DNA of 64,000 nucleotides from Patescibacteria group bacterium (GTDB taxonomy: Bacteria > Patescibacteriota > Patescibacteriia > CAIXNZ01), in NCBI GenBank assembly GCA_041651155.1, contig JBAZJU010000002.1, forward strand, positions 89,852-153,851. Direction: 5' to 3'. Position numbers and translations under genes: made by a program. Below the pieces are notes generated by a model that was not told where the DNA came from, searched no databases, and saw only the letters and a list, made by a program, of their open reading frames with translations. Each line of letters opens with the position of its first letter. The first letter of the stretch is position 1. Positions 2,122 to 30,467 of this stretch are shown here, piece after piece.

Positions 2122-3273
2122 ATGAAAAAATCTTTAAAAATCGGATTTTTTACTGACACTTATTTGCCTCAGGTGAATGGCGTTGTTACCTCAATTGAAA
2201 GTTTTCGCCAGGAGCTAGAAAAACAAGGCCATCAGGTCTATATTTTTTGTCCCAGGGCTGACCATAAAAAAGATGACAAAAGTATAATCCGTTTCCCTTC
2301 TATAAAATTCGTTTTCCAGCCAGAATACCATGTTTCCTTGCCCTTTACCAGGCACTTATTGCGGGATTTTTGGGAAAAAGAATTAGATATTGTCCATGCT
2401 CACACGCCATTTAGCCTGGGTCTTTTAGGCTATTATTACTCATATATTAAGAAAGTTCCCTTTGTCTATACCTATCACACTCTTTATCCTGAATATGTAA
2501 AATCGTATGTGTGGAACGGCAGATTAATAACTCCTAAGATGGTTGCAAAAATTACGGCCATGTTTTCTAACAGATGCGATTTAAATATTGCCCCTTCGGG
2601 AAAGATAAAAAAACTTTTAAAAAGTTATGGCGTAAAAAAACCAATTACAGTATTGCCCACGGGAATTAAGGTTGAAAAATTCAGTAAAAGAGCCAGGCCA
2701 AATAATTTTAGAAGCAAATATAAAATTAAGCCTGAGGAAAAAGTTTTGCTTTATGTCGGACGGCTAGGGCAAGAAAAAAATATTGAATTTTTGCTTAAAG
2801 CATTTTTTGTATTAAAGCAAAGCCAGCAGAAAATTAAATTAATACTTGTCGGCGACGGCCCTGCTAAAAAGAATTTACAAAAGTTAGTTAAAGATCATGG
2901 CTTGGGTAAAGACGTTATCTTTACGAGTTATTTATCTCAAACAGAAGTAATTAGAGCGAATCAGTCAGCAGATTTATTTATTTTTGCTTCTAAAACTGAT
3001 ACTCAGGGTTTAGTTCTATTAGAAGCAGCTGCCAGCGGCTTGCCTATAGTCGCAGTGAAAGACGATGCCTTTGTTAAAATCTTAGAAGACAAGGTAAATG
3101 GATATATAGTAAAACAAAATGTGGCGGAATTTAATAAAAGAATATTGCAAATTTTAGATAACAAAAAATTATATCAGAGGTTATCCAAAAAATCAGCAGA
3201 GATTGCCGAGAATTTCAGTATTGAAAAGCAGACAGCTGAATTAATCCAAGCTTATCGTAAATTATTACACTAA
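2122..3273 (+). CDS. Glycosyltransferase family 4 (GT-B fold)
   Basis: EAAASGLPIVA motif and GT4-like N-terminal sugar-acceptor domain. Confidence 0.7.
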   Translation: MKKSLKIGFFTDTYLPQVNGVVTSIESFRQELEKQGHQVYIFCPRADHKKDDKSIIRFPSIKFVFQPEYHVSLPFTRHLLRDFWEKELDIVHAHTPFSLGLLGYYYSYIKKVPFVYTYHTLYPEYVKSYVWNGRLITPKMVAKITAMFSNRCDLNIAPSGKIKKLLKSYGVKKPITVLPTGIKVEKFSKRARPNNFRSKYKIKPEEKVLLYVGRLGQEKNIEFLLKAFFVLKQSQQKIKLILVGDGPAKKNLQKLVKDHGLGKDVIFTSYLSQTEVIRANQSADLFIFASKTDTQGLVLLEAAASGLPIVAVKDDAFVKILEDKVNGYIVKQNVAEFNKRILQILDNKKLYQRLSKKSAEIAENFSIEKQTAELIQAYRKLLH

Positions 3274-6476: not shown

Positions 6477-6980
6477 TTAGAGGTCTATTTGGCTGAGAAG
6501 TTTTTTTGACTGCAAATAGGTCAGGGCAATAGCCAGAGCATCAGCCGCATCATCTGGCTTAGGTATTTGCTTTAAGTTTAGCAAAATTTTAACCATGGCC
6601 TGAACTTGGCGTTTGTCTGCTTTGCCATAACCGCAAACTGACTGTTTAACCTGCAAGGGCGTAAATTCATAGAGGGGGAGTTTGTTTAATATCGCTGTGA
6701 GCAGGATTACTCCACGCGCTTGGCCAACTTGCAAGGCAGTCTTTACATTTTTACAAAAAAATAATTGCTCAACAGCAATTACATCTGGCCTGTACTTTTT
6801 GATCAATTTATTTAAGGATTGATGAATATATTTTAATCTTTCTGGGAATTTTTGTCTGGGCGAGGTTGAAATAATGCCAAAATCAAGAATTTGATTATTT
6901 TTGCCTGTTTCCTTAATAAAAGCAAACCCAGTAGTTGCTACCCCTGGATCAACACCTAGAATTATTATTTCATTGGGCAT
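6477..6980 (-). CDS. ruvC: Holliday junction resolvase RuvC
   Basis: N-terminus IILGVDPGVATTGFAFI is typical RuvC; length 167 aa. Confidence 0.85.
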   Translation of the reverse strand: MPNEIIILGVDPGVATTGFAFIKETGKNNQILDFGIISTSPRQKFPERLKYIHQSLNKLIKKYRPDVIAVEQLFFCKNVKTALQVGQARGVILLTAILNKLPLYEFTPLQVKQSVCGYGKADKRQVQAMVKILLNLKQIPKPDDAADALAIALTYLQSKKLLSQIDL

Positions 6981-6981
6981 T

Positions 6982-7710
6982 TTATTCTTTTAAATTTGTG
7001 TAATAATTATCAACATCATCATTGTCATCAAAAGCTTCAAATAATTTTTGATTTTTTTCCTGCAGTTCGGCTGAAACAGTAATTTTTTCCCTGGGCACAA
7101 ATTCAATTTCAGCATAATCACTACTTAAGCCCAGATCTTTTAATTTACCAAAGACTTTCTGCAAATCTTCAACTTTGGTAAAAATAGTCAGGCCGTCTTC
7201 ACTGGTCGCAATATCTTGCGCGCCAGCATCAATGATTTGCAATTCTAATTCATCTAGATTTTTATTGCTTAATTGCGCTTGCTCTATTCTAATTACGCCT
7301 TTTTGCTCAAATTGCCACATGACTGAATTAGGGTTGCCTAAAGTGCCGCCATTGGCTGAAAATAAATGCTTCATATCAGAAGCAGTGCGGTTTTTATTAT
7401 CTGACAAGCATTTGATTATCAGAGCAGTGCCTCCTGGACCAAAGCCTTCATAAGTTAATTCTTCTATTTTTTCTCCTTTGATTTCGCCAGTGCCTTTTTT
7501 AATCGCGCGTTCAATATTTTCTTTGGGCACATTGGCTGCTCTGGCTTTTTCAATAGCCAGACGCAAAGAAAAATTGGAGTCTGGATCACCACCTTTTTCT
7601 CGGGCAGTCACTGTGACAGCCTTGGTTAGTTTGGTAAACAAATTAGCACGTTTAGCATCTTGCGCGCCTTTTGTTCTTTTGATATTTGCCCATTTAGAAT
7701 GCCCGCTCAT
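6982..7710 (-). CDS. yebC: YebC/PmpR family DNA-binding transcriptional regulator
   Basis: MSGHSKWANIKRTKGAQDAKR N-terminus diagnostic of YebC family; classic adjacency to ruvC. Confidence 0.85.
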   Translation of the reverse strand: MSGHSKWANIKRTKGAQDAKRANLFTKLTKAVTVTAREKGGDPDSNFSLRLAIEKARAANVPKENIERAIKKGTGEIKGEKIEELTYEGFGPGGTALIIKCLSDNKNRTASDMKHLFSANGGTLGNPNSVMWQFEQKGVIRIEQAQLSNKNLDELELQIIDAGAQDIATSEDGLTIFTKVEDLQKVFGKLKDLGLSSDYAEIEFVPREKITVSAELQEKNQKLFEAFDDNDDVDNYYTNLKE

Positions 7711-8013: not shown

Positions 8014-8640
8014 ATGATAATTTTCATATTTCTATTTATTTTTTTAATTGCGGCCGCCATTATCTTGTTGTTTTTGGGCTATAATTATGTTGCGCTGGCG
8101 CTTAGTATTATTATAATCTGCCTGTTATACTTAGGCCTAATTTTTGTAATGATAGAATGCTATAGAGTCTTATTCGTGGGCAATGCGCCTTATGTGCCGA
8201 CCCGCAAAAAATTAATAAATAAAATTTTAGAAGCCGTTGATTTTAAGGAAAAAGCTTTGGTCTATGAATTAGGTTGCGGCAGCGCCAAGTTTTTACGCAG
8301 CTTGGCTAAAACTAAAGATATTCAGGCTATTGGTTATGAATATTTTATCATGCCCTACATTTTTGCCCGTTTATACTGTTTATTAGCAAATAGGAATGTA
8401 AAAATATATTATCAGGATTTTTTTAAGGCTGATTTGTCTCAGGCGGATTACATTTTTTGTTTTTTAATTGATAAGGAAATGGCTCGTTTAGAGGGGAAGC
8501 TGATCGCAGAATTAAAGCCGGGCGCTTTAGTTATTTCCAATACTTTTAAATTCACGAATTGGGAGCCGATTAAAATAGTTGCCCTGAACGAAAATAAAAA
8601 ATTAAGCTTAAATAACAGAGTTTTTATCTACCGGAAATAG
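8014..8640 (+). CDS. Membrane-anchored class I SAM-dependent methyltransferase
   Basis: Two N-terminal TM helices followed by VYELGCGSAKF (methyltransferase motif I, GxGxG). Confidence 0.45.
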   Translation: MIIFIFLFIFLIAAAIILLFLGYNYVALALSIIIICLLYLGLIFVMIECYRVLFVGNAPYVPTRKKLINKILEAVDFKEKALVYELGCGSAKFLRSLAKTKDIQAIGYEYFIMPYIFARLYCLLANRNVKIYYQDFFKADLSQADYIFCFLIDKEMARLEGKLIAELKPGALVISNTFKFTNWEPIKIVALNENKKLSLNNRVFIYRK

Positions 8641-8675
8641 TTTAAAAAAATGAGGGGATTTGTTATAATTCAAGC

Positions 8676-10310
8676 ATGAAGAATCTCCTGCATTTAGGCG
8701 TAAAGTTAAAAGAACTGATAATAAAAAATCAGTTTATTTTGTATCTAATGATTTTTTTTACGGCTTTTTTGGCCTATTTGTGGATTCAGTCTTCACCGAC
8801 TTTTTTAGACCCCGATTCATTTTACCATCTAAAAATGGCCAAGCTTATTGCCGAGCGTGGAGTGATTTTAGATTTTCCCTGGCTGCAGTTTACAGTGCTA
8901 AAGGATTATTACATTGACCATCATTTTCTCTATCATGTTGCAGCCATACCTTTTATTAAGGTTTTTGGAGATTTTGCCGGATTTAAATTGTATACTGTAA
9001 TTTTGGCTACACTGTTTATCTTTTTGTCTTACTGTTTCTTTAAAAAGGAAAAGCTTAAATATGCAGAGATTTATGCGCTGATAATGATTTTTACAGCTGA
9101 CTTTATGTTTAGGATTTCTTTGGCCAAAGCCAGCGCGTTTTCTTTAATCATCTTATTTGCAGGCATATATTTTATTTTTTATAAGAAATACTGGCTTTTA
9201 TTTTTGGGCGCTTATTTGTATGTTTTGTCATATGGAGGGTTTCCGCTTCTGGCGGTAATCACCCTAATTTACGTTTTTGCGCGTGCTTTTGATTTAACTT
9301 TTATTAATAAAATAAAATTCATAGAGCCGGCGCATGTTTCATTAATAAAAAAAGTATTTAAGAATTTCGCGGTTTTTTTAAAGAATATTCTCTCGTGGGA
9401 GAGTGCAAGAATTATAGCCGCCACCTTGAGCGGAATTTTTGTCGGTCTGATTTTAAATCCATATTTTCCCAAAAATCTGAATTTTTATTGGCAGCAGCTG
9501 GTGCAGATCGGGATTATTAATTTTCAAGGCGTGGTTAATGTGGGCGGAGAGTGGTATCCATATGAATTTTTAAAATTAATTTCTGATACAGGAGTTTTAT
9601 TCATCTTTGGGGTAGTAGCTTTTGTCCTATTTTTTATTTTTATTAAAAAGCAAAACGCCAAAAGCATTTTCTTTTTATTGGCAGCCTTATTTTTTTTATT
9701 TTTAACCCTGAAATCAAAGCGTTATATAGAATATTTTGTGCCATTTTTAGATTTTTTCGTGGCTTTTACCCTAGGGAATATTCTTGCCGAGGTTAAAGTC
9801 AAAGAATTTTTGCAGATTTTTAAAAAAGAAAATTATATAATCGGCTTGCTCTTACATTTTTGTTTGATTTATGCGGCTATTATTTTTCCCTTAATAATGA
9901 TGCGGGATGCATATCTGACCAGGCAGAGCTTTAAGGGCGGGATAGAATTCAGCCGATTCTCCGGCATTAGCAAGTATTTGCTGGCAAATTCTCAGCCAGG
10001 ACAAATTGTAATGCAGACTGACTGGGATGATTGGCCGATGTTATTTTATTATAATGATAAGGATTATTATATTGTTGGTCTGGATCCGACTTTTATGTAT
10101 AATTATGATCCGGTGTTATATAATTTATTCGCAGATATAACTACAACAAAAAAAGCAGATGATTTGTATCAGATAGTTAAAAATACTTTTAAAGCCAGCT
10201 ATTTTATAGTGGATAAAGATCGCTTTTGGCTAGTTCAAAATTTGCAAAATGATGGTAATTTTACCAAAGTCTATGAAGATAATGACGGTTCAATATATAA
10301 ATTGAAGTAA
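8676..10310 (+). CDS. GT-C-fold-like polytopic membrane protein, candidate polyprenol-phosphate-sugar dependent glycosyltransferase
   Basis: 544 aa, more than 10 TM helices, acidic first extracytoplasmic loop (LDPDSFYH), large C-terminal soluble domain; immediately upstream of a GT2 Dpm1-like gene. Confidence 0.4.
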   Translation: MKNLLHLGVKLKELIIKNQFILYLMIFFTAFLAYLWIQSSPTFLDPDSFYHLKMAKLIAERGVILDFPWLQFTVLKDYYIDHHFLYHVAAIPFIKVFGDFAGFKLYTVILATLFIFLSYCFFKKEKLKYAEIYALIMIFTADFMFRISLAKASAFSLIILFAGIYFIFYKKYWLLFLGAYLYVLSYGGFPLLAVITLIYVFARAFDLTFINKIKFIEPAHVSLIKKVFKNFAVFLKNILSWESARIIAATLSGIFVGLILNPYFPKNLNFYWQQLVQIGIINFQGVVNVGGEWYPYEFLKLISDTGVLFIFGVVAFVLFFIFIKKQNAKSIFFLLAALFFLFLTLKSKRYIEYFVPFLDFFVAFTLGNILAEVKVKEFLQIFKKENYIIGLLLHFCLIYAAIIFPLIMMRDAYLTRQSFKGGIEFSRFSGISKYLLANSQPGQIVMQTDWDDWPMLFYYNDKDYYIVGLDPTFMYNYDPVLYNLFADITTTKKADDLYQIVKNTFKASYFIVDKDRFWLVQNLQNDGNFTKVYEDNDGSIYKLK

Positions 10311-10315
10311 AGTTT

Positions 10316-11947
10316 ATGTTTAAGGGTTATACTAAGCGAGAAAATTTAATTGTGCTAGTAATAATTGGCACTGCGCTTTTGCTCTCCAGCCTGCCTTATG
10401 CGGTGGGTTTTTTTTGGGGCGGGCAAAATCATTTTCTCGGCGGCAGCCATATGAATTTAGGTGATGTGAGCGTTTACCGCTCATATATTGAGCAGGCAAA
10501 AGAAGGCAAAATATTGGTCTTGAATTTATTTACTTCAGAAACACAAACTGCCATGTATTTTACTCCGCTGTGGCTGGTGCTGGGGCTCTTGGCCAGACTT
10601 TTTAGCCTAAATAGCCTTTTAATTTTTCATTTAGCCAGGTTTTTAGCCGGATTTTTATTTTTATACTTTATTTTTTATTATTTTCTGGATTTATTTTTTA
10701 AAAAATATTGGGATAAAATCATTGCCTTACTTTTAATTTGTTTCTCCTCGGGCTTGGGTTTGTTTTTTAAGCCTCAGACAAAAAGTATAATTTTTGACGC
10801 CAAATATATCTGGCAAAATTTTTCAGTTGACTTGATTATGCCAGAATCAAACACTTTCTTAACTCTGGCCCATTCAGCTCTCTTTGTGATTTCTCAACTT
10901 TTAATTCTTCTCACATTTTATTGGCTTATAAAAGCCAATACGCAAAAGAAAACTTTATTTTTTCTTTTTGGTGTCAGTTTTATTCTGGGACTTATTCATA
11001 CTTATGATATTTTAATTGTTTTGGGGGTCTCTCTTGCTTATTTGATTACTGGATTTATTTTTAGAAAACAAAGCTTAATTTTTAATTTTAAAAATTATAT
11101 CCTAAAAATTTTTATAATTGGTTTGGGCTATGCCCCGGCCTTTTATTATTTTTATTTTATAGTAAGAAGAGAGCCGGCTTTGTGGGGCTGGATAAGCCAA
11201 AACATTACAGACTCGCCTTCTTTTAAGATGTATTTAATTGCCTATGGCTTTTTAATTTTTTTTAGTATTTTCAGCCTGCGCTTATTAAAAAAGCAAAACA
11301 ACAAAAATGTCTATTTTTTAATAGTCTGGGTTTTGACCTTGTTTGTTTTAGCATATTTGCCGCTTTCTTTTCAGAGGAGATTGATTAGCACCGAACACAT
11401 TGCCCTGGCGATTCTGGCAACTTATAGTTTAAGCTGGCTGGTTGCTGAAATTTTAAAAATATATAAAAAAAGATGGCAAAATATATTAACTGTAATTTTA
11501 TTGTTTGTGTTTATGAGCCTGGCAAATCTGTCTTTTGTTGTTACGGTTATATATGATTATATTAAACTGCCGCAGATTTTTTATTTGCCTGATAGTTTTT
11601 ACCAGGCTGCGGTCTGGCTTAAAACAAAGAGCTTAAGCAATGAAGCTGTCTTAGCCAGCGCGCAAAATGGCATGATTTTACCGCCTTTTATCAACAGACC
11701 TGTTTTTTTAGGCAGCGGGCATCAGACCTTGGATTTTCAACATAAAAGAGAACTTTTAGATAAGTGGTTTTTTCAGGATAATAATCAGGCAGACGCCAAA
11801 AAACAATTTTTGCAAAATTATAATATTAAATATATATTTTATACAGCCAGGGAAAAGTTATTGGGTAATTATGATCTTGATAAAGCCGATTATTTGCAGC
11901 AAGTTTACGCTAATAAAGAGGTTAAAATTTACAAATTAATTGATTGA
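10316..11947 (+). CDS. GT-C-fold-like polytopic membrane protein (second paralog-type)
   Basis: 543 aa, many TM helices, C-terminal soluble domain; 4-nt spacing to previous gene and 8-nt overlap with the GT2 gene. Confidence 0.4.
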   Translation: MFKGYTKRENLIVLVIIGTALLLSSLPYAVGFFWGGQNHFLGGSHMNLGDVSVYRSYIEQAKEGKILVLNLFTSETQTAMYFTPLWLVLGLLARLFSLNSLLIFHLARFLAGFLFLYFIFYYFLDLFFKKYWDKIIALLLICFSSGLGLFFKPQTKSIIFDAKYIWQNFSVDLIMPESNTFLTLAHSALFVISQLLILLTFYWLIKANTQKKTLFFLFGVSFILGLIHTYDILIVLGVSLAYLITGFIFRKQSLIFNFKNYILKIFIIGLGYAPAFYYFYFIVRREPALWGWISQNITDSPSFKMYLIAYGFLIFFSIFSLRLLKKQNNKNVYFLIVWVLTLFVLAYLPLSFQRRLISTEHIALAILATYSLSWLVAEILKIYKKRWQNILTVILLFVFMSLANLSFVVTVIYDYIKLPQIFYLPDSFYQAAVWLKTKSLSNEAVLASAQNGMILPPFINRPVFLGSGHQTLDFQHKRELLDKWFFQDNNQADAKKQFLQNYNIKYIFYTAREKLLGNYDLDKADYLQQVYANKEVKIYKLID

Positions 11948-12674
11948 GATGAAAAAATTGTTAATTGTAATCCCGGCTTATAATGAGGCTAAAATAATTA
12001 AAGCAAATTTAGAAAAATTAGCAGATTATGCCCAGGCAAATTTGCAGGCTTATGATTATAAAATAGTTGTCTCTGATAATAATTCAACTGATTTAACAGG
12101 GCGGATTGTGAAAGATTTGCTGCCTTCAATAAATCATTTAGAATATTTGTTTGTGCCGCAAAAAGGCAAGGGCGTGGCAGTTTTAACTGCCTGGCAAAAA
12201 TACCAAAATGATTATGATTTTTTTGCTTTTATGGATGCTGATTTGGCCACTGATTTGAGAGCATTTTTACCGCTTGTCACTGCCCTGGAGCAGGGCTATG
12301 ACCTGGCGATTGGTTCAAGGTATTTAAAAGAATCTGAAGTCAGGCGTTCTTTATTTAGAAAAATTATGTCTTATGCTTATCGCTTATTTATAAAAATATT
12401 TTTAAATACCGAAATAAATGATTTTCCAACTGGCTTTAAAGCAGTGAGCCAGAAAGTCGTAAAACAAATAATTCCTTTGGTAAAAAACACAACTTGGTTT
12501 TTTGATAGTGAAATTATTTATCAGTCAGAAAAAAGAGGCTTGAAAATTAAAGAAATCCCGGTCAAGTGGGTTGAACCAAGAGGCAAGGGCGATAAAAGCA
12601 GGGTTAATCCTCTAAAAGTTTCCTTGCTATATTTAAAGGAAATTATTAAGTTAAGATTTTTTAAAGGCAGGTAG
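11940..12674 (+). CDS. GT2 polyprenol-phosphate glycosyltransferase (Dpm1/GtrB/ArnC-like)
   Basis: LLIVIPAYNEA and FMDADL (DxD) motifs of GT-A fold family 2; size and layout like dolichyl/undecaprenyl-phosphate sugar synthases. Confidence 0.7.
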   Translation: MIEMKKLLIVIPAYNEAKIIKANLEKLADYAQANLQAYDYKIVVSDNNSTDLTGRIVKDLLPSINHLEYLFVPQKGKGVAVLTAWQKYQNDYDFFAFMDADLATDLRAFLPLVTALEQGYDLAIGSRYLKESEVRRSLFRKIMSYAYRLFIKIFLNTEINDFPTGFKAVSQKVVKQIIPLVKNTTWFFDSEIIYQSEKRGLKIKEIPVKWVEPRGKGDKSRVNPLKVSLLYLKEIIKLRFFKGR

Positions 12675-12707
12675 TTTTTTCGGGGATTTACTGGATTTTT
12701 TGCATGG

Positions 12708-14585
12708 TTAATTTAGCTCAAACTGGCCGATAATTTCTTTTTTATCCCAGACAACCTGATTACTGTTGAGGCCGTCTAATTCCAAGCCGCCAGATAAATT
12801 TAAGATCTGGGCGGTTTTTATTTTTGGCAGATTATAAAAGTTCAGCTGGATAATCTGACCTATTTGCCATTCGCTGGTCGGGTAAAGCCCGTAGCCCAGA
12901 GGATAAAGTTCCTTATCAAGCTGGATAAAATAATTTTTATAAATTTTAGTCAGAGGTTTGAAGTACAAAGAAGTTAAATTATCACTTGTGTCAAACCCGA
13001 GGAAATTTATTTGTTCGTTTAAATTCAAATCCGCTGGTTTAGTAATCGCTGGTATTTCTTTGTCATAGATTTTATACAAGGCAATGCCTGTATCTGGCGC
13101 ATTTTTTTCCCAAAGAGCTAAATTTTGTTCAATTTTAATCAGCTGGAAATCTGGAGATAATAATTTTCTCAAGTTATCATCACCTTGATAAAAAATCCCA
13201 GGCAAATTTTTCTCATAAAGAGTTTGATAAGAAGCTAAATCAGTAAAATTAATTAAGACATATTGTAAGTCAGCCGGTGTGGGAAAATCTTTAACCAAGT
13301 ATTGTTGTTTGCCTAAAAATAAATAATTTAAAGAGTAAAGTTTTGGCCTGGAAGAAAGATTAGAAATAAGATCAAAGCTGGTTGCAGCTGAAACATTGGC
13401 AGGAATTTCTTTTAAAAATTTATTTTTTAAAGTTATCTGCTGGTAGTCTGTGGCAAAGATTGCCTGGGAAAAAGCCAAGACTGGACCAAGCACAAAAAAA
13501 AGATAAATTAAACTGATAATAACGATTAAGGCAATGACATCTTTGTATTTTTGCCAGATAAGAATGCTTTTTTGCCTGGCAGATATTTTTTTAAGAGAAA
13601 AAATGGCAGCCAAGGAAAAGACAATTAAAAATATGGCGCCATAGTGCATTTTTAAAATAGCTTCGCCTGAAGCCGGACCCAAAACTAATTGCATAAACAT
13701 GCCCAAAGAAAGTAAAAGATATTTAGGCCGGTAAAGCGGAATAAATAAAAAAACCATAAAGAATCCGAGCACAAATTCAAAATTAGTCAGAGTCAAAAGA
13801 TGGCTTAAAACTAAAGGCAACTTGACAAAGAAATTTATAAAAATTTCTTGCAGGTTTGCGCCCAGCCAATTATAATAAATCAGAAATTTATAATCTTGAG
13901 AGGAAGAAAAATAAGCAGTCGCTTTCAAAGCCAGAAAAAAATACGCAGTTGAGACAAAAAGAGGCGTTAGAATCCATTTTAGTTTTTTTCTATCTAAAAT
14001 CGCTATTATGCCAAACATAAAAATAACAAAAGCCAGATCTTCGCGCACCAAGAGGGTTAAAAGGGCTAAACCTAAAAAAGAAGAAAATTTATTCTGATCA
14101 TAAAAATAAAATGTCCAGGCAATAAAAAAAGGCGCCAAGGCCAGCATGTGGAATTCAAAAGTATTGATGTTAAGAGTTACTGGATTAAAAAGGTATAAAA
14201 TAACAATTAACAATGTTTGCCAGGGATTCAAATATTTTTTAGCAATTAGATATAAGGGGATTACTGTGAAGGCTAAAAATAATGTTTGGATAAAAAGCAG
14301 ATTTAAAGGTGATTTAAATAAAGAATAAAATGGGATTAGAAAAAAAATTAAAATTTCAAAATGATCGCCCAGATAAGAAGTCGGGTGGATTGTAAATTGA
14401 AAAAAATGGCTCTGGCTGGAATTAAAAAAAACCTGGTTAAAAATCGCCAGATCCAGACCATTGTAGCTGAAAGTAAAGTACTTAAATAAGCACAGGCCAA
14501 AAGCCAGGACAATATAAACAGCCAGCATGATTAAAAGTAGCTTATTTAATTTTTGCCAGTTGAGATTTTTAAAATAGGAAAACAT
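12708..14585 (-). CDS. GT-C-fold-like polytopic membrane protein (third, 620-650 aa)
   Basis: More than 12 TM helices then a roughly 250-aa soluble C-terminal domain. ORF track runs to 14654 through a pyrimidine-rich leader; ATG at 14585 (MFSYFKNL) is the more plausible start. Confidence 0.4.
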   Translation of the reverse strand: MFSYFKNLNWQKLNKLLLIMLAVYIVLAFGLCLFKYFTFSYNGLDLAIFNQVFFNSSQSHFFQFTIHPTSYLGDHFEILIFFLIPFYSLFKSPLNLLFIQTLFLAFTVIPLYLIAKKYLNPWQTLLIVILYLFNPVTLNINTFEFHMLALAPFFIAWTFYFYDQNKFSSFLGLALLTLLVREDLAFVIFMFGIIAILDRKKLKWILTPLFVSTAYFFLALKATAYFSSSQDYKFLIYYNWLGANLQEIFINFFVKLPLVLSHLLTLTNFEFVLGFFMVFLFIPLYRPKYLLLSLGMFMQLVLGPASGEAILKMHYGAIFLIVFSLAAIFSLKKISARQKSILIWQKYKDVIALIVIISLIYLFFVLGPVLAFSQAIFATDYQQITLKNKFLKEIPANVSAATSFDLISNLSSRPKLYSLNYLFLGKQQYLVKDFPTPADLQYVLINFTDLASYQTLYEKNLPGIFYQGDDNLRKLLSPDFQLIKIEQNLALWEKNAPDTGIALYKIYDKEIPAITKPADLNLNEQINFLGFDTSDNLTSLYFKPLTKIYKNYFIQLDKELYPLGYGLYPTSEWQIGQIIQLNFYNLPKIKTAQILNLSGGLELDGLNSNQVVWDKKEIIGQFELN

Positions 14586-14755
14586 ATAACTTAATTTTAT
14601 GCTAAATTTAGGGAAAGATAAAGAAGAGAAGGGTAAGATGGGTAAGAGGAGCAAAAAGGGTAAAAGGGGGATTATTTTAGAGTTTAGGAGCTTGTTTTTT
14701 ATCTTATTTTAGCCACAAAAGGGATCTTTTAGAGCTAAAGTTAGCGCATGTTCTA

Positions 14756-14784: not shown

Positions 14785-14871
14785 GAAAAATCCAAAACTG
14801 TTTGGATTTGTTCATTGAACAAACAAGAAACATTGAAAAATATAGGCACAAAGTGCCAAAGGAGGAGTGAA

Positions 14872-15480
14872 ATGAAAAAGAGTTTTTTGGTAATCGTGGT
14901 AATGGTGATGGCTTTGTCAGGTATGGCCTGCATCCATCCTCAGCCAATTTCTGTAACCCTACATCGCGATGGGCTTAACGTTGAGGTCAATGGCGACAGA
15001 GAAGCGGTTCAATCTTTGGTAGCAGACTCGCCCGCTCTAGATGCAACTCAGGATTTCAGCGGCGGTATTAACCCCGCCATCGCTGCTGCTATTCAGAAAA
15101 ATCCCAATGCCACAGTGATTTATTCGCCGGATCGCGGAGTCACCTATATTCCGGAAGGTGGACAGGAAGCGGCCGCTAAATATCGCGGAATAATTCATAA
15201 TGACAGCAATAAAAACATTTTTGTGGATATTGCGTCAGCGACAAATCCAGGAGTTAAACGTAGTTTTTATCTCAGGGCCAATCAATCGATTTCCGCTGTT
15301 CTTTTTCCGGGCAGATACAACTACACTATAGGGTGGAACAATCCTCAAGGTAAAAGAGTGTTGTTGCTTCCTCCAAGCAGTTTAATAATTGACGCCTTTA
15401 CCCAAAATGCAACTTCTCCCGACAATGGAGAACCACTTCCGTGGACCTTAAGCTATGTGGAAACACCGGTGCCACGCTAA
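14872..15480 (+). CDS. Secreted protein of unknown function
   Basis: GGAGGAG RBS 7 nt upstream of ATG at 14872; signal-peptide-like MKKSFLVIVVMVMALSGMA. ORF track begins at an upstream TTG (14815). Confidence 0.5.
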   Translation: MKKSFLVIVVMVMALSGMACIHPQPISVTLHRDGLNVEVNGDREAVQSLVADSPALDATQDFSGGINPAIAAAIQKNPNATVIYSPDRGVTYIPEGGQEAAAKYRGIIHNDSNKNIFVDIASATNPGVKRSFYLRANQSISAVLFPGRYNYTIGWNNPQGKRVLLLPPSSLIIDAFTQNATSPDNGEPLPWTLSYVETPVPR

Positions 15481-15540: not shown

Positions 15541-15999
15541 TTAAGGCTGAATAATTACGGTACCAGGCGGGTTTGTACCCGGTGGTTCTGTCCCTGGCGG
15601 ATTTTCGCCGCCAGTTGAAGATCCTGTGCCGATTGAATTAATAATTTGCGAAGTAATAAAACTGGCAATAGCATAGGCGCTCAAAATAATAACTATGCCA
15701 ATAATGGCAGTTGTTAAAATGCCTTTGGCTTTTTTAAGGACTGGTTCCTGGCCTTGGGAAGTTAAATACAAAAAGCCAGCATACAAAATCATGGCAACTG
15801 AGATTATTCCCAAAAGGCCTAGAAGCGTTTGAATAATTAGGGCTGCTAAAATTTGGGGTGATTGCGGAGTTTCTACGCCATAAACTGCTTGACCCAGGTT
15901 TTGCACTCCTCCGCTGATTATGCCGGCGGAAGCTATTTGCGCGGTCAACAAAAATCCGAAGATTATCAGCGGAATTATAGCTATTTTATTTATTTTCAT
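15541..15999 (-). CDS. TrbC/VirB2-like (T4SS pilin-like) membrane hairpin protein, paralog 1
   Basis: Signal peptide, then the conserved module hydrophobic helix-YAGFLYLTSQG-KKAKG-second helix; C-terminal PPGT repeats. Confidence 0.55.
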   Translation of the reverse strand: MKINKIAIIPLIIFGFLLTAQIASAGIISGGVQNLGQAVYGVETPQSPQILAALIIQTLLGLLGIISVAMILYAGFLYLTSQGQEPVLKKAKGILTTAIIGIVIILSAYAIASFITSQIINSIGTGSSTGGENPPGTEPPGTNPPGTVIIQP

Positions 16000-16019
16000 A
16001 TAGCAAAATTATTTATTAA

Positions 16020-16604
16020 CTAAGGGGTTTGCGGACGCAAACAATCATCAACGCTTGCCAGGCCGCAGGCTTGCCAGTGGCCAGTGCAAAAAGGAGTCTG
16101 GCGGCAGCAAATAGCATCAGCAGATTTGTAATAATCATAGCGGGCATTGCAGCAGGCAATGCTGGTGTACATATTAATATCCTGGCTATTATCGCATAAA
16201 GGATTGTAAGCTCCCTGGCTTGCTGGTTGAGCGCCGGGAGATTCTAAGGTCGTAGTTATAAAATAAGTGATTGTATAACCGGAAAAAATAATAATAATAC
16301 CGATTACTGCCGCAGTTAAAGTGTTTTTGCCTTTCTTGATTTTGTCTTCACTGCCGCCAGAGACTAAATAAAGATAGCCGCCATACATCAGGAGCGCGAC
16401 AAAAACAATGCCTAAGAGCGTAAAAAGAGCCATAATTATATTGGCCGCATAAGCTGCCAGAGAAATCTGATCGCCTGGATAAGCTAGCGAGCCTGTTTTA
16501 TTTAAGCCTTGCAAAAAATTAGACTGGGCTAAAACAGGATAAAAATATAAAAATATGCCCAAAGTTATAATTATGATAAAGAGAATAGAAAGATTTTTTT
16601 TCAT
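16020..16604 (-). CDS. TrbC/VirB2-like membrane hairpin protein with Cys-rich C-terminal ectodomain, paralog 2
   Basis: Module ...LLMYGGYLYLVSGGSEDKIKKGKNTL...; C-terminal roughly 70 aa with 9 Cys. Confidence 0.55.
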   Translation of the reverse strand: MKKNLSILFIIIITLGIFLYFYPVLAQSNFLQGLNKTGSLAYPGDQISLAAYAANIIMALFTLLGIVFVALLMYGGYLYLVSGGSEDKIKKGKNTLTAAVIGIIIIFSGYTITYFITTTLESPGAQPASQGAYNPLCDNSQDINMYTSIACCNARYDYYKSADAICCRQTPFCTGHWQACGLASVDDCLRPQTP

Positions 16605-16608
16605 AATG

Positions 16609-17040
16609 CTAGGGGTTAGATTGGGTCGTCTCGGTCGTATTTGACTGTGAACCTTCCAAGACCTGGCTAATAAAGAAAGTAATTGTATAAGCAGCAGTTA
16701 TTATAGCTAAGCCAATTACTGCATTAACTAATAATTTTTTAGCTTTTTCAATTTTGTCAGGAGCACCGCCAGCTGTCATCCATTTAAAGCCGCCATAAAT
16801 AAATAAAATCAAAAATATCATGCCCACCAGGCTCAAAAGAGCTTTGATTATATTGGCAATAATAATGCTTATTTCAGAAGTTTGCACGCCTGCTGATTGG
16901 GCGCTTGTTTCAATGCCCTGATTAGCATTTTGAAAATTTAAGGCAGCCTGCGCAACTATTGGCATCACAAAAATAAAAGCCAGCACAACAAAAATTATCA
17001 GGCTTAAGTATCTTTTTTTAATTTTGCCAAGTCGGATCAT
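16609..17040 (-). CDS. TrbC/VirB2-like membrane hairpin protein, paralog 3
   Basis: ...FIYGGFKWMTAGGAPDKIEKAKKLL... module; 4-nt gap to paralog 2. Confidence 0.55.
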   Translation of the reverse strand: MIRLGKIKKRYLSLIIFVVLAFIFVMPIVAQAALNFQNANQGIETSAQSAGVQTSEISIIIANIIKALLSLVGMIFLILFIYGGFKWMTAGGAPDKIEKAKKLLVNAVIGLAIITAAYTITFFISQVLEGSQSNTTETTQSNP

Positions 17041-17740
17041 ATTCGCAGTAATTATAAGGGATATAGTGAAAATGACAGTGGGTGCCTAGTTTTTCGCATT
17101 CTGACTGGCTGCAGATATTAGTTGCGCCTTGGCCGCATTGATCGCATTTTTCATCAGCATAAAGCGGCAGGCAGCAGATTTGGTTGCCGCAATCAGTAGT
17201 AATGCCAAGAGACTTGCCCTGTAATTGCCTGAGGCAAAAATCAAGGGCGGCACATTGGGCTCCGCCGGGCTGCTCTGTACAGGTGATTCCTATGGCGGTG
17301 CCGCTGCCTGGTTGATTAGTATTTTGGTTGAGGTTGGTAGTATTTGAATTTTGCGTTTCCTGAAAAGAAGGGCCTGACATGATAGAAGATGCGATAAAAG
17401 TGGTAAGGGCATAGGCACCGACTACAATTAATGCGCCAACAGTGGCATAGCTCAAAGTTTTTTTGGCTTTGCCGATTTTGTCTTCACTGCCAGCCGAAGT
17501 CAGCCAAACAAAACCGCCATAAATAAATAAAATAAAAAAAATAGCGCCAACCACGCCTAAAACAGCAGTGATGACGCCAGCTATAATTACAGTATAATCA
17601 GCCTGGGTCACGCCGGCTTCAGTGGCTGTTTTTTGGGAAAAGCCAGAAATATCAGTAAAGCTGTAAGCCCAGGCATTGCTAATTAAAAATAAACAGCCAA
17701 TGATTATAAAAAATAGTAAAAATATTCTTTTAAACTGCAT
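17018..17740 (-). CDS. TrbC/VirB2-like membrane hairpin protein with Cys-rich C-terminal ectodomain, paralog 4
   Basis: ...FIYGGFVWLTSAGSEDKIGKAKKTL... module; C-terminal roughly 100 aa with 14 Cys; 23-nt overlap with paralog 3. Confidence 0.55.
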   Translation of the reverse strand: MQFKRIFLLFFIIIGCLFLISNAWAYSFTDISGFSQKTATEAGVTQADYTVIIAGVITAVLGVVGAIFFILFIYGGFVWLTSAGSEDKIGKAKKTLSYATVGALIVVGAYALTTFIASSIMSGPSFQETQNSNTTNLNQNTNQPGSGTAIGITCTEQPGGAQCAALDFCLRQLQGKSLGITTDCGNQICCLPLYADEKCDQCGQGATNICSQSECEKLGTHCHFHYIPYNYCEYDPTWQN

Positions 17741-17760
17741 GGGGAAAGGTCAATCTTTTT

Positions 17761-18117
17761 TTATTTAAAAATTTGAAAAATTAAAGTGGTTATGGCATAG
17801 GCTGCGCCCAAAACAAGAGCGCCGATAATGGCCCAGGTAATTATTTTTTTGCCTTTGGCCACATTTTCGCCCCCGGCTGAAGTCATCATCATAATTCCGC
17901 CATAAACAATTAAGAATAAAAAAATAGAACCGCTTAAGGCCAAAGCAGCGCCGGCAAAACGCCCTAAAAAAGTCGGAACATCGCCTTGGGGCAGTCCGGC
18001 TACGGTGTTAGCTTCATTCAAACCATATTGGGCAAGAAGCGGGCTAAAAGGCAAAAGCAAGCCAAAAGTAAAAATGTATATATAAATTTTTTTAAACATA
18101 TAATTTTTTAGGAACAT
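17761..18117 (-). CDS. TrbC/VirB2-like membrane hairpin protein, paralog 5 (minimal, 118 aa)
   Basis: ...IVYGGIMMMTSAGGENVAKGKKII... module only. Confidence 0.5.
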   Translation of the reverse strand: MFLKNYMFKKIYIYIFTFGLLLPFSPLLAQYGLNEANTVAGLPQGDVPTFLGRFAGAALALSGSIFLFLIVYGGIMMMTSAGGENVAKGKKIITWAIIGALVLGAAYAITTLIFQIFK

Positions 18118-18142
18118 TTAAGGGGGCGAAGCGCCCCCTTAA
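18118..18142 (-). promoter_or_regulatory. GC-rich perfect hairpin abutting the start codon of paralog 5
   Basis: ttaagggggcg aa gcgcccccttaa: 10-11 bp perfect stem in an AT-rich context, located exactly where an SD would be. Confidence 0.4.
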
Positions 18143-18158
18143 ATGCCTAAATGATAAA

Positions 18159-18518
18159 TTAAGTAGTTGCGTTCAGGATAGATGTAATAACGAAATTGGC
18201 AATCGCATAAGCTGCTAAAATAATGACTAAGCCGATAAGACCGGCCACAATCAATTCTTTAGCTTTTTTAGTCTTGTCAGAATCGCCCATAGAAGTCATC
18301 CATTTAAAGCCGCCTAAAAGAATGATCAACACAGCGACTAAGCCTAAAAGACCCATTGCTACATTTATAATTTGAGCGACTGTCACGCGTACATCTCGTG
18401 TGCCTAGGCCGATATAAGGCTGGATAGTATTCAGGCCTGGCTCAATTGTAGCTGCAGATGCCATGACCGGAACTACCAATAGGCTAAAAAGCGCTAAAAT
18501 TACAGCGAATTTTTTCAT
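18159..18518 (-). CDS. TrbC/VirB2-like membrane hairpin protein, paralog 6 (minimal, 119 aa)
   Basis: ...ILLGGFKWMTSMGDSDKTKKAKELI... module. Confidence 0.55.
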   Translation of the reverse strand: MKKFAVILALFSLLVVPVMASAATIEPGLNTIQPYIGLGTRDVRVTVAQIINVAMGLLGLVAVLIILLGGFKWMTSMGDSDKTKKAKELIVAGLIGLVIILAAYAIANFVITSILNATT

Positions 18519-18674
18519 GTTTTTAAACCCTTTCTTAATGCTTATTAAATCTAAGCATTGAAGAATTAATTATTAATTATATATAAATTGTTAAATTACT
18601 ATACCTTAATTATAATATTTTTTAGGTTTTAAGGCAAATTAAATTAATTTGTTAGTCTTTTAGCTCTTATCAGG

Positions 18675-19451
18675 CTAAATTGATGAGCTGCAACAACAAA
18701 TAGGAACGCCTTCTGGCTTATCAATGCACTCTTTGATATTATCCCAAGTTTCTGACAGGTTGACAGGGTTATTGCAAACAGAAACATTTGAGACGCAAGT
18801 AGCTGTGCAATTTGGGTGGTTTGCGCAAAAATTATTGCAAACAGTTGAACAATTAGTATCTAATAAAGTTTCATTGGTTTCCGGTTTGAGGCGGGCGCAT
18901 TTGTCAGTTGCATTTGGGCAGCTAATATAGGTTTGATTTTGAATATAATATTTGGCAGAATCAGGATTTGCAACACAGCTCCATTCTGCGCCAAAAGTTT
19001 TAGCGCAAAGATCAGGCGGGGTAAAAGTCGTGGCAGGCGTAGTTCCGCCTGTTGAACTTGGGGCTTGTGGAACAATGCCGCGAGTGATGCCTGTTAAAAT
19101 AAAATTAGTTAAGATGTAGCTGCCTAAAATCACAGCAATGCCGATCACTGCCCAGACTAAAACCGTCTTGCCTTTATTGATTGCATCTGATTTTCCTGCA
19201 GAAGTAAGCATTAGAAAACCGCCGTACACAAACATTAGCAAGGCAACTGCGCCAATAATGCCTAAAAAGGCTCGGATAATGCGGCCGATCAAAGTAGCCA
19301 CGCCAGCAGCGCCGGTTAAATTTCCCACAGGACTGACATCAGTTAAACTCACAGGCGCGTTGGCTGCTAAAGCAGCATTACTAATTAATAAGGCGCAGCT
19401 AAAAAAGATCAATAATAGGAGGAGTTTGTGTTTTTTTAGAAATTTCTTCAT
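18675..19451 (-). CDS. TrbC/VirB2-like membrane hairpin protein with Cys-rich C-terminal ectodomain, paralog 7
   Basis: ...FVYGGFLMLTSAGKSDAINKGKTVL... module; C-terminal roughly 130 aa with about 20 Cys, ending CCCSSSI. Confidence 0.55.
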   Translation of the reverse strand: MKKFLKKHKLLLLLIFFSCALLISNAALAANAPVSLTDVSPVGNLTGAAGVATLIGRIIRAFLGIIGAVALLMFVYGGFLMLTSAGKSDAINKGKTVLVWAVIGIAVILGSYILTNFILTGITRGIVPQAPSSTGGTTPATTFTPPDLCAKTFGAEWSCVANPDSAKYYIQNQTYISCPNATDKCARLKPETNETLLDTNCSTVCNNFCANHPNCTATCVSNVSVCNNPVNLSETWDNIKECIDKPEGVPICCCSSSI

Positions 19452-19483
19452 GGGGCTTTTTTAAGAAGTTAGTTTAAAAAGTT

Positions 19484-21238: not shown

Positions 21239-21351
21239 AAAGGTATAAATGCTAATTTACAAATGTAATGCGAATCTATGAATAAGCAAATTATTAAACT
21301 GATAAATTGTTGAATGGCTAAATGGTTGATTGATAACAAGTGTTATTCTTT

Positions 21352-29944: not shown

Positions 29945-30467
29945 ATGTATAAGGGTAAGATGAGGAAAAAGAGTAAGAAGGGTCATCCTACGCTCCTGCC
30001 TTCGTTGAAACTTCGGCAGGCAGGAAAACTTCGGATGACAAGTAAAAGGGGGTAAGATGGGATTTCCTTTAGGTAATCATAACAAAAAGAACGATTTTAA
30101 TAAATGTTCGGAAATTAATTAGGTACTAAATAAACTGATAAATTGAACTCATATTTTTAGATACAGACTTAAATCCTTATATAAAATTAGCCTAAAATTA
30201 GTGAACAAAATTTTTATACAAAAGAGGGTTTTTCATTGAATGGGCTTGACATAAATGGTATAATTATAATATAAAAATGCGAATAATATTTTAATGCAAA
30301 TGCCACCTACCTTCGCTCCTTTGGAGCTACGGCAGGCAGGCGAATATTTAAAATCCGAATACAACTCTGCCCCAATTTATAACGTAAAGTCCTCAGTCTT
30401 TCGAAATTCGCAGATTCGCATTATTCGTAGATTAGCATTCAAAAAAAACAAAAATAAAAAAATACCT

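Follow-up and report, generated by a model that had tools for sequence, protein, structure and literature searches.

The window analysed here is a stretch of 64,000 nucleotides from a Patescibacteria group bacterium. Inspection of open reading frames located five genes at positions 8014 to 14654 of this window, encoding a methyltransferase (MT), two polytopic proteins (P2 and P3), a GT2 enzyme and, on the opposite strand, a convergent DUF2079 protein (Table 1). The NCBI locus tags on the matching Patescibacteria MAG contig are WC460_02525/02530. A preliminary description of this DNA had read the region as one Dpm1/GtrB-type GT2 set among three different GT-C enzymes, with GT4, Wzx-type, GalU-like and GH-like genes elsewhere in the window. 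These latter genes are all present, the GH-like one being a weak assignment, and amidase and SpoIID genes also occur in the window.

Table 1. Genes of the locus and other features of the window (window coordinates)
Feature	Position	Strand	Description
MT	8014-8640	+	208 aa; membrane-anchored class-I SAM methyltransferase, aKMT type
P2	8676-10310	+	544 aa, polytopic; STT3/AglB-like GT-C, unclassified Patescibacteria family
P3	10316-11947	+	543 aa, polytopic; second unclassified STT3-like GT-C
GT2	11949-12674 (alternative TTG start 11940)	+	241 aa, Dpm1/GtrB/AglJ-type; PF00535
DUF2079 protein	12708-14585	-	625 aa, polytopic, putative GT-C; PF09852
VirB2-like array, nine genes	15541-22281	-	Pfam T4SS_pilin (PF18895) matches
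GT4	2122-3273		elsewhere in window
GH-like gene	1121-2119		weak; elsewhere in window
GalU-like nucleotidyltransferase	24442-25311		elsewhere in window
Wzx-type Polysacc_synt	28490-29986		elsewhere in window

P2, P3 and the DUF2079 protein are mutually distinct in sequence, as had been claimed, the sole BLASTP signal among them being that between P2 and P3 (E 0.003). All three possess Lys/Arg-rich N-termini, which predict that the N-terminus is inside and loop 1 external. An Asp shortly after TM1, in the loop where an acidic motif had been anticipated for GT-C enzymes, is invariant in each family (D45/D47 in P2, D50 in P3 and D45 in the DUF2079 protein). Pfam assigns a family to the convergent protein only; P2 and P3 have no match in Pfam or NCBIfam and no sequence-family membership in GT39, GT83, GT85 or GT87. 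Structure searches with AlphaFold models of P2 and P3 (pLDDT about 93) returned GT-C glycosyltransferases only, with the catalytic subunits of oligosaccharyltransferases (OSTs; STT3, AglB and PglB) ranking first and their C-terminal globular domain included in the match. AftA and ArnT are also good structural matches, AftA matching P3 strongly. None of the three membrane proteins resembles a transporter, the alternative that the preliminary description had named.

Foldseek analysis of P2 showed the top thirteen matches to be OST catalytic subunits (E 1e-10 to 1e-7, versus 1e-5 to 1e-3 for ArnT and AftA); the aligned stretch spans about 430-470 residues and takes in the C-terminal core domain. 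The protein thus matched consists of a polytopic TM domain and a C-terminal alpha/beta domain. It possesses DPD in external loop 1, invariant residues E292 and R349, and an invariant W450-D451 right after the last TM helix, which hhalign places on the WWD of STT3. As modelled, P2 is a GT-C glycosyltransferase of an unclassified family with STT3/AglB-like architecture. Profile comparison showed P2 to be homologous to P3, the profile of which extends to the STT3 C-terminus at the sequence level. The model of P3 retains the full GT-C fold and an OST-like external domain at high confidence, and the WWD motif is absent. D50 is invariant in 32 of 32 sequences, with E177, D172 and H228 close to invariance, and the P3 family has only six invariant columns. 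On its model, P3 is a second unclassified GT-C with STT3-like architecture.

The DUF2079 protein was identified by PF09852 (E 1e-50; 173.6 bits against a cut-off of 28.2). Gene calls start it at the ATG at 14585, in agreement with the preliminary description, while the mechanical ORF runs on to a TTG at 14654. Besides D45, its conserved residues are G-D74-H75, E144-F-H146 and E182-D183. Comparison with the P2 family using hhalign gave a 60% match (E 8e-5) over 290 colinear columns, with the common motif QFT[IV]..Y[LI]xDHF; this match and the Pfam clan of the family, which we take to be that of the GT-C enzymes, make the protein a putative GT-C. Its gene converges on the GT2 operon and shares the orientation of the pilin-like array. 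Among 40 loci that possess an array, 25 have the DUF2079 gene immediately downstream and on the strand of the array (with a gap of at most 121 bp in 12 loci). The earlier placement of the protein as a third GT-C holds as far as its identity is concerned; by position, its gene is a companion of the pilin-like array and not of the P2-P3-GT2 operon.

GT2 matches PF00535 (E 1.6e-24), and its best solved relative is the Dol-P-Man synthase of Pyrococcus furiosus (PDB accession no. 5mlz, E 4e-15; residues 3-235 against 24-246, with the DAD motif covered). NCBIfam gave sub-threshold matches to PgfS, AglJ, the haloarchaeal Dol-P-hexose transferase and ArnC, of which the best, PgfS, is far under its cut-off. 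No hydrophobic segment or TM helix was found in GT2, which consists of a soluble catalytic domain alone. Homology predicts GT2 to be a polyprenyl-phosphate sugar synthase of the Dpm1/GtrB/AglJ type, its activity and sugar being deduced from its relatives. Coupling to P3 had been proposed from a TTG start at 11940, which would give an overlap of 8 nt; public gene calls place the start at the ATG at 11949, one base past the P3 stop codon (11945-11947), so that the overlap falls away while the two genes are tightly packed whichever start applies. Some relatives encode GT2 and P3 as a fusion protein, of which GT2 forms the N-terminal part. A physical or functional link between GT2 and the GT-Cs, as predicted from sequence, is backed by these fusions and by conserved clustering, which in more distant relatives brings further GT-Cs around a single GT2.

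MT possesses two hydrophobic N-terminal helices (residues 1-58), and over its entire catalytic domain it can be aligned with aKMT of Sulfolobus (PDB accession nos. 5fa8/5jwj, E 3e-18; residues 54-206 against 3-155 of the chain). NCBIfam NF041081 scored 54.6 bits against a cut-off of 200. By this alignment, MT is homologous to aKMT, a protein-lysine methyltransferase of archaea. It had been counted as a member of the glycosylation module; its gene lies directly upstream of P2 in 8 of 66 loci, from the closest relatives only, and this restriction does not support such a role. MT probably neighbours the module and acts separately from it, in the methylation of protein lysines.

A survey of 80 Patescibacteria genomes yielded these 66 P2 loci, of which 53, with 9 kb or more of downstream sequence, were used for counts over the 10 kb following P2. 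Synteny is conserved: GT2, P3 or DUF2079 was found within this span in 46 of the 53 loci (87%) and a VirB2-like pilin array in 35 (66%), GT2 itself not being found in 25 at the threshold used. The functionally unrelated YebC-RuvC pair adjoins P2 in 54 of 66 loci and is more conserved than the pilin array; the whole region, with these genes, forms one synteny block, which the presence of pilins tracks (OR 5.6, p 0.08). Pilin arrays and DUF2079 show no significant association (OR 3.9, p 0.065). The neighbourhood lends moderate support to pilin acceptors.

Each array protein possesses a signal peptide, two TM helices and a tail, and several carry external S/T/P/G-rich linkers and Cys-rich C-terminal domains (a tail encoded in 19484-21238 reads GTGTNTSTTGTSATTTTTTAPSTPSGTST). 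From this context the array proteins are candidate glycosylation acceptors, and their Thr-rich linkers may be O-glycosylated. Among related loci, the pilin-like proteins show no enrichment of S/T-rich windows (5% vs 3%).

We consider it fairly probable that the locus encodes an extracytoplasmic glycosylation module, in which GT2 makes a lipid-linked sugar, GT-Cs transfer it outside and the acceptors are likely secreted or surface proteins. GT2 would take a monosaccharide from a nucleotide sugar and attach it to polyprenyl phosphate on the cytoplasmic side of the membrane, the product most likely being a polyprenyl-phosphate-hexose. It would probably be held at the membrane by P3, as suggested by the fusion of the two in some relatives. 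After a flippase has turned the lipid-linked sugar over, P2, P3 and the DUF2079 protein may use it outside the membrane via the invariant Asp of the first external loop, a chemistry suggested by fold and motifs; one donor synthase would then feed three GT-Cs. The weakest step is the acceptor: most likely secreted or surface proteins, the adjacent VirB2-like pilins among them, as suggested by the W-D that P2 keeps from the peptide-binding WWDXG of OSTs and by the DUF2079 gene often directly following pilin genes. The streptococcal pairs GtrB/PgtC2 and PgfS/PgfM1 provide a precedent for such acceptors.

It is possible, if rather unlikely, that the same machinery serves cell-envelope glycopolymers or lipoglycans instead of proteins, such as teichoic-acid-like polymers, peptidoglycan-linked polysaccharide or lipomannan-like chains. 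CsbB/YfhO of Bacillus and Listeria, the side-chain glucosylation of streptococcal rhamnopolysaccharide and PPM-dependent LM/LAM/AG assembly in mycobacteria are examples. As in polymer-building pathways, many GT-C paralogues surround one GT2 in relatives: PMT_2, GT87/MptA_B, PTPS_related and YfhO GT-Cs are added around a single GT2 in more distant relatives, the stacked paralogues include three P3 copies, and one relative (L006) has a GT87/MptA_B-like gene inside the cluster. A class A PBP is encoded upstream in 21 of 66 loci, and the GT4, Wzx-type, GalU-like, amidase and SpoIID genes of the window, the lack of the peptide-binding WWD in P3 and the structural matches to AftA and ArnT, enzymes whose acceptors are glycans or lipids, point the same way. 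However, P2 is clearly closest in structure to the protein-modifying OSTs and retains W-D where these have WWDXG, the linkage of DUF2079 to pilin-like genes is tight, and no TagF-like or Wzy-like polymer-synthesis genes were found inside the conserved block.

It is improbable that P2 is a genuine, very divergent N-oligosaccharyltransferase, functionally orthologous to AglB/PglB, that transfers a lipid-linked oligosaccharide, assembled beforehand, to the Asn of N-x-S/T sequons, with GT2 acting like AglJ to prime a polyprenyl-monophosphate carrier, as happens in euryarchaeal N-glycosylation. The extent of the structural match, the loop-1 DPD, E292, R349 and W450-D451, the similarity of GT2 to AglJ and the haloarchaeal transferase, the GT4 and Wzx-type genes and several N-x-S/T sequons in the Cys-rich pilin-like tails would fit it. 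Yet even searches at E 0.1 give no Pfam STT3 match for any member of the P2 family, and no OST is retrieved from PDB sequences with the P2 profile at E≤10. The motif reads xWD[DE]F-P instead of WWDXG, the other catalytic residues being putative equivalents; cytoplasmic GTs able to build an oligosaccharide are absent from the conserved block, and a genome of 35% GC is expected to contain sequons by chance. Least probable is that at least one GT-C-like protein is no transferase, P3 especially serving as an anchor or scaffold for the TM-less GT2, as DPM3 or Ppm2 does for DPM1 or Ppm1, or as a lipid-sugar flippase: GT2 is fused to or abuts P3, the P3 family has few invariant columns and no dedicated flippase was found, the cluster having no flippase gene, but the conserved D50, E177, D172 and H228 fit a catalytic site, fold and external domain are retained, and anchoring and catalysis are not mutually exclusive.

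The proposed module of GT2 and GT-Cs has parts in common with several known systems. The STT3/AglB/PglB OSTs (PF02516) share with P2 and P3 a polytopic GT-C domain, a C-terminal alpha/beta core domain (matching AglB-S2) and acidic residues in external loop 1, but they are of 700-970 aa rather than about 540 aa and differ in sequence profile and in their complete WWDXG. In the euryarchaeal Agl pathway, where AglJ and AglD are Dol-P sugar synthases, a GT-C is likewise paired with a Dpm1-like GT2. Actinobacterial Ppm1, a polyprenol-phosphate-mannose synthase, operates with Pmt and the GT-Cs PimE, MptA/B and AftA, and similarly represents one soluble Dpm1-like synthase that needs a membrane partner or fusion and feeds several GT-Cs; mycobacterial Ppm1 has an Lnt-like domain as its fused or bound partner, whereas the probable partner here is a GT-C (P3). 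The mycobacterial acceptors are lipoglycans, arabinogalactan and Ala/Thr/Pro-rich proteins. In the three-component Gtr/CsbB-GtcA-YfhO systems, a cytoplasmic GT2 makes a C55-P-sugar, which is flipped and transferred outside by a GT-C. The logic proposed here is the same, but the GT-C families differ and no small flippase of the GtrA/GtcA type was found in the window.

The role of YfhO in such systems has been described (PMC12041528). The GT-C enzyme TfpW of Pseudomonas aeruginosa is reported to add arabinose to type IV pilin (bioRxiv 10.1101/2020.04.19.049825); it resembles the arrangement proposed here in being encoded beside the pilin that it modifies and in its lipid-linked donor, and differs in that its substrate is a type IV (T4P) pilin rather than a VirB2-like one. 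In streptococcal O-glycosylation (GtrB/PgtC2 and PgfS/PgfM1/PgfM2), a GT-A/GT2 enzyme makes the undecaprenyl-phosphate sugar and GT-Cs transfer it outside, as proposed here; the targets of GtrB/PgtC2 and PgfS/PgfM1 are S/T-rich, disordered extracytoplasmic stretches of surface proteins, and in S. mutans the Pgf cluster encodes its own adhesin substrates beside the enzyme genes (PMC12041528). The streptococcal GT-Cs belong to the YfhO family, in contrast to two unclassified STT3-like families and DUF2079 here; GT2 lacks TM helices, unlike its streptococcal counterpart, and the putative substrates, deduced from sequence, are VirB2-like pilins instead of LPXTG adhesins, PBPs or PrsA. The locus is a known kind of system assembled from unclassified enzyme families.

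A predicted polyprenyl-phosphate sugar synthase (GT2, 241 aa), two polytopic proteins likely to be GT-C enzymes (P2, 544 aa, and P3, 543 aa), a DUF2079 membrane protein and a putative methyltransferase (MT) are encoded by five genes lying between a YebC-RuvC pair and an array of nine VirB2-like genes (T4SS_pilin, PF18895), in DNA of low GC content (about 33-40%). The ORFs were confirmed, with the coordinates and gene order given in the preliminary description. The window corresponds to a contig of a Patescibacteria MAG (NCBI locus tags WC460_02525/02530). On the plus strand, MT and P2 are separated by 35 nt, P2 and P3 by 5 nt, and P3 and GT2 by 1 nt, the last two genes overlapping by 8 nt if GT2 starts at the TTG. 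The MT-P2 spacer contains a promoter-like sequence, TTTAAA-17-TATAAT with a TG upstream, whose end lies 7 nt before the start codon of P2; judging from this site, P2 might be transcribed from a promoter of its own, giving an almost leaderless mRNA. A promoter and terminator scan returned 29 promoter-like sites with 29.2 expected from shuffled sequences, and as this is no excess over the shuffles, transcription units are not defined by the scan. The ORF interposed between the DUF2079 gene and the array recurs as the same insertion in loci L007, L011-L014 and L017 of close relatives. Elsewhere in the window, the adjoining genes for a homologue of the 23S rRNA intervening-sequence protein and for an 880-aa protein have no relation to the predicted glycosylation cluster, and a tRNA-like sequence may represent a truncated or unusual tRNA.

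Features of the predicted glycosylation region and other features of the window
Feature	Position	Strand	Remarks
YebC-RuvC pair	6477-7710	minus	divergent; one flank of the five-gene region
MT	8014-8640	plus	first of the five genes
Promoter-like sequence	8641-8669	plus	ends 7 nt before P2 start
P2	8676-10310	plus	
P3	10316-11947	plus	
GT2	11949-12674	plus	alternative TTG start at 11940
DUF2079 gene	12708-14585	minus	convergent
Interposed ORF	14815-15480	plus	secreted or TM-anchored protein, 192-221 aa by start choice, without family match
VirB2-like array	15541-22281	minus	other flank of the five-gene region
Pilin-like protein, 584 aa	19484-21238		pilin module in C-terminal half
SpoIID-domain protein, 784 aa	30294-32648	plus	Ig-like repeats
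Intervening-sequence protein homologue	41807-42154	minus	adjoins the next gene
880-aa protein	42205-44847	minus	lamin-tail, PKD and DUF5689 domains
tRNA-like sequence	63559-63610	minus	Rfam 31.4 bits (gathering score 29), model positions 9-63; no ARAGORN call

GT2 matched the Pfam model PF00535 (E 1.6e-24; 87.1 bits against a cut-off of 23.3), and its closest solved structure is the dolichyl-phosphate-mannose synthase of Pyrococcus furiosus (PDB accession no. 5mlz; E 4e-15). Residues 3-235 of GT2 align with residues 24-246 of 5mlz, the entire catalytic domain, with MDADL on MDADL (the DAD metal/nucleotide motif) and the IGSRY and GF motifs kept. The protein has a GT-A domain with a DXD motif and whole-domain homology to a solved polyprenyl-phosphate sugar synthase; ArnC structures were also matched in the PDB search. 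No equivalog-level NCBIfam match, of the kind that would give sugar specificity, was obtained (PgfS 51 against 500, AglJ 51 against 325, ArnC 35 against 529), and the sub-cut-off matches, namely PgfS, AglJ, the haloarchaeal Dol-P-hexose transferase, ArnC and PpgS, are all lipid-phosphate sugar synthases. The enzyme class predicted by these comparisons is clear. No hydrophobic segment was found in GT2, which therefore resembles the TM-less DPM1/Ppm1 type, synthases that require a membrane partner.

In single-sequence searches P2 and P3 had no match in Pfam, NCBIfam or PDB sequences. The STT3 model (PF02516) matched neither protein at E<=1 and none of the 45 and 32 members of their families at E<=0.1, the only stray sub-threshold Pfam matches among all family members being DUF7649, DUF7657, DUF6541 and DUF2142. 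The P2 profile found no oligosaccharyltransferase (OST) among PDB sequences, and PDB-chain searches with P2, P3 and the DUF2079 protein, as single sequences or profiles, gave nothing useful except a weak match of P3 to the C-terminal part of STT3. AlphaFold2 models were built from alignments A1 (45 sequences, 39-64% identity to P2) and A2 (32 sequences, 23-57% identity to P3), with mean pLDDT values of 92.7 for P2 and 92.8 for P3. Over the conserved TM module these models can be superposed on GT-C enzymes of known structure, and they show the architecture of an OST, in which a polytopic TM domain precedes an external alpha/beta core domain at the C-terminus. Foldseek analysis of P2 placed 13 OST catalytic subunits on top (E 3e-10 to 1e-7, TM-score about 0.6), followed by ALG12, ArnT, ALG9 and AftA, with PMTs far weaker. 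At the sequence level, the P3 profile matched the C-terminal region of STT3 only (E 0.0033), hhalign aligned the P3 family with two STT3/AglB C-terminal segments (92% probability), and the P2 and P3 families are homologous across their C-terminal halves (hhalign 96.9%, E 1.4e-10). Structures and sequence evidence agree: P2 and P3 are GT-C enzymes by fold, with OST-like architecture and a predicted chemistry, and stand outside all curated family models. A reading of P2, P3 and the DUF2079 protein as transporters was rejected on fold. Homologues of P2 number more than 1745 and the P3 profile retrieved 10,048 cluster representatives; both families are annotated only as "hypothetical protein".

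Structural matches of the predicted models
Model	Best matches	Further matches	
P2	STT3B 22.8 (466 residues aligned), AglB 22.2, Pmt4 22.1, ALG12 21.6	then AftA, ArnT, DPY19, PglB	10.5
P3	STT3B 20.8, AftA 18.2, AglB 17.1	then DPY19	13.1

All three membrane proteins have a conserved acidic residue immediately past TM1, in extracytoplasmic loop 1; their N-in topology is predicted from N-termini rich in Lys/Arg. In P2 these are D45 (43/45 sequences of A1) and D47 (45/45), with D45-P46-D47 opening the loop-1 helix; the counterparts are D50 in loop 1 of P3 (32/32 sequences of A2) and D45, right after TM1, in the DUF2079 family (40/40 sequences of alignment A4). Each lies 5-15 residues past TM1, where the loop-1 helix begins. 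The catalytic set of OSTs consists of DXD in EL1/EL2, TIXE/SVSE in EL5 and a conserved Arg binding pyrophosphate, and the invariant or near-invariant residues D45-P-D47, D81-x-H83, E292-W293 and R349 of P2 are candidates for putative counterparts of these elements; H87 follows D81-x-H83 in the P2 motif. Directly after its last TM helix P2 possesses the motif [H]-x-D-W450-D451-[DE]-F-P454, the W being present in 45/45 and the D in 42/45 sequences. In OSTs, the sequon's +2 Ser/Thr is bound by the WWDXG motif, with which the C-terminal domain begins. The placement by hhalign of W450-D451 on the second W and the D of SWWD, in a short, low-probability alignment (5.6%, E 0.0068), is suggestive of equivalence to WWDXG; chaining P2 to STT3 via the P3 alignment gave a register shifted by one residue from this placement. 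No WWD-like motif occurs in P3, where the column pattern "asalnGn" aligns to SWWDYGY.

The DUF2079 protein matched PF09852 (173.6 bits, gathering score 28.2; model positions 2-422 of 459), a domain present in all 120 of the 120 homologues listed, and DUF2079 is presumably a member of Pfam's GT-C clan. Its family (A4) has further motifs (G-D74-H75, E144-F-H146 and E182-D183) and is colinear with P2 over 290 columns (hhalign 60%, E 8e-5), with the common motif QFT[IV]..Y[LI]xDHF.

A scan of GTDB species genomes identified 223 genomes with a P2 relative, of which 80 were retrieved for locus analysis; these are Patescibacteria-type MAGs (Uhr-, Falkow-, Buchanan-, Kerfeld-, Komeili- and Parcubacteria). 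Many GTDB records with this locus bear the title "uncultured Gammaproteobacteria bacterium" (TPA_asm series; L007, L030, L035, L037, L038 and others), one of them an 886-kb chromosome, and these titles look like mislabelling. The 80 loci were searched with HMMs from our own alignments, and those with at least 9 kb downstream or at least 3 kb upstream of P2 were taken as assessable. Within about 10 kb downstream of P2, GT2 was found in 28, P3 in 32 and DUF2079 in 29 of 53 loci, and at least one of the three in 46/53 (87%); VirB2-like genes lie downstream in 35/53 (66%). Upstream, YebC and RuvC were each present in 54/66 loci and a class A PBP in 21/66. GT2-P3 fusions with the GT2 domain N-terminal occur in several relatives (P0146, P0148, P0151, P0158 and P0272). 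A 1352-aa protein combines a YfhO-like region with a P3 domain, and P0224 is also among these natural fusions. In a relative whose P2 is 64% identical, the order is MT-P2-P3-P3-P3-GT2, then an unassigned 549-aa ORF and PMT_2. At 40-43% identity P2 still adjoins YebC-RuvC, and DUF2079, PMT_2, GT87/MptA_B, PTPS_related and YfhO-type GT-Cs surround a single GT2. Four loci (L026, L057, L066 and L071) have tandem P2-P2 duplicates directly beside VirB2-like arrays, with GT2 not detected within 10 kb.

In 25/40 array loci the annotated gene immediately preceding the minus-strand pilin genes is a minus-strand DUF2079, and in 12 of these 25 the gap is at most 121 bp; given the direction of transcription, the DUF2079 gene is downstream of the pilin genes. 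In genomes other than those of the window and its close relatives it abuts the pilin genes. The preliminary description had placed this gene in the GT2 module as a third GT-C; it is convergent to that operon, and because of its adjacency to the pilin genes it belongs with the array at least as much as with GT2. The pilin-DUF2079 association across loci was not significant (OR 3.9, p 0.065), pilin presence also tracked the unrelated YebC-RuvC landmark (OR 5.6, p 0.08), and pilin adjacency was not clearly independent of general synteny. Much of the neighbourhood signal is ordinary clade-level synteny.

In several pilin-like proteins of the window the second TM helix leads into a linker rich in S/T/P/G, and in several array proteins a Cys-rich C-terminal domain comes after the linker; some of the Cys-rich tails contain N-x-S/T sequons. 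The 584-aa protein carries its pilin module (TM helices 336-411) behind a long Cys-rich N-terminal region. Among pilin-like proteins of other P2 loci, S/T-rich stretches were not enriched, and such linkers were therefore dropped as a general feature of P2-neighbouring pilins. The scanned window ORFs contained neither VirB4 nor any other component of a T4SS. Patescibacteria are known to carry VirB2-like arrays with 2-11 genes, and one such array has been reported to be essential for the epibiotic growth of a cultured CPR bacterium, in a paper in which glycosylation is not addressed (PMC12102498).

In the proposed mechanism, cytoplasmic GT2 would make a polyprenyl-phosphate sugar, which would be flipped across the membrane and transferred outside by P2, P3 and DUF2079. 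This generic split-pathway scheme is very probably right. The full explanation, in which the most likely acceptors of the split pathway are secreted or surface proteins, the array included, is moderately favoured. Taken separately, it is somewhat less likely than not that the acceptors are proteins, and a role of the VirB2-like array among the acceptors is rather unlikely. For GtrA/GtcA, the small flippase of the Gtr-type three-component system, a scan covering most window ORFs of 110 aa or more gave no Pfam match. The closest experimentally defined analogues are the streptococcal pairs GtrB/PgtC2 and PgfS/PgfM1, which glycosylate S/T-rich extracytoplasmic regions; the S. mutans Pgf cluster also codes for its own adhesin substrates (PMC12041528).

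The main rival explanation is that GT2 and the GT-Cs decorate or assemble envelope glycopolymers, for which the AftA/ArnT structural matches and the stacks of GT-C paralogues in relatives argue. P2 could possibly be a true N-OST, but it fails the sequence-profile test. We consider it improbable that P2 represents a deeply divergent, Patescibacteria-specific STT3/AglB/PglB branch which, with GT2 and the pilin-linked DUF2079, glycosylates variable VirB2-like arrays; if so, surface glycosylation would be part of how ultrasmall episymbionts present or mask host-contact proteins. The SpoIID-domain protein showed a sub-threshold match to the middle domain of OST48 (E 1.2e-4; 22.5 bits, cut-off 27.9), which is probably due to chance.

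MT had been described as part of the glycosylation module. The whole of its catalytic domain aligns with aKMT, an archaeal protein-lysine methyltransferase (PDB accession nos. 5fa8/5jwj; E 3e-18), although below equivalog level (NF041081, 54.6 bits against a cut-off of 200), and it possesses an ELGCGSA SAM-binding motif and two N-terminal TM helices. By its sequence MT is an aKMT homologue with an added two-TM anchor and a putative role in protein-lysine methylation, a combination unusual in a bacterium; its layout recalls the mitochondrial FAM173 lysine methyltransferases. A sugar O-methyltransferase reading was rejected in favour of this homology; no sign of sugar methylation was seen, and MT is not counted in the glycosylation chemistry. 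The gene was identified only in the nearest relatives (8/66 loci, upstream of P2), a distant relative having instead a UbiE-type methyltransferase after P2.

The pairing of GT2 with GT-C enzymes is a familiar mechanism, and only if the pilin array proves to be the acceptor would the advance be more than incremental. New are the fold and likely function of two large CPR families with OST-like architecture, the suggestive partial WWD motif of P2, the GT2-P3 fusions and the recurrent placement of DUF2079 with VirB2-like arrays. In the literature searched, no paper links Patescibacteria/CPR with GT-C, STT3-like or oligosaccharyltransferase enzymes, and DUF2079 is not mentioned. Patescibacteria make up a large share of bacterial diversity, live attached to other microbes and have an almost uncharacterised envelope biochemistry. 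The P2 and P3 families, with the architecture of the N-glycosylation enzyme, gain a fold and a likely chemistry for "hypothetical proteins", and the locus suggests a concrete, testable connection of VirB2-like pilin arrays to a lipid-sugar pathway. Should P2 prove to be an OST relative that modifies proteins, STT3-like enzymes would be more widely distributed among bacteria than now known; if the acceptors are wall polymers, envelope-decoration machinery of the clade would still have been identified.
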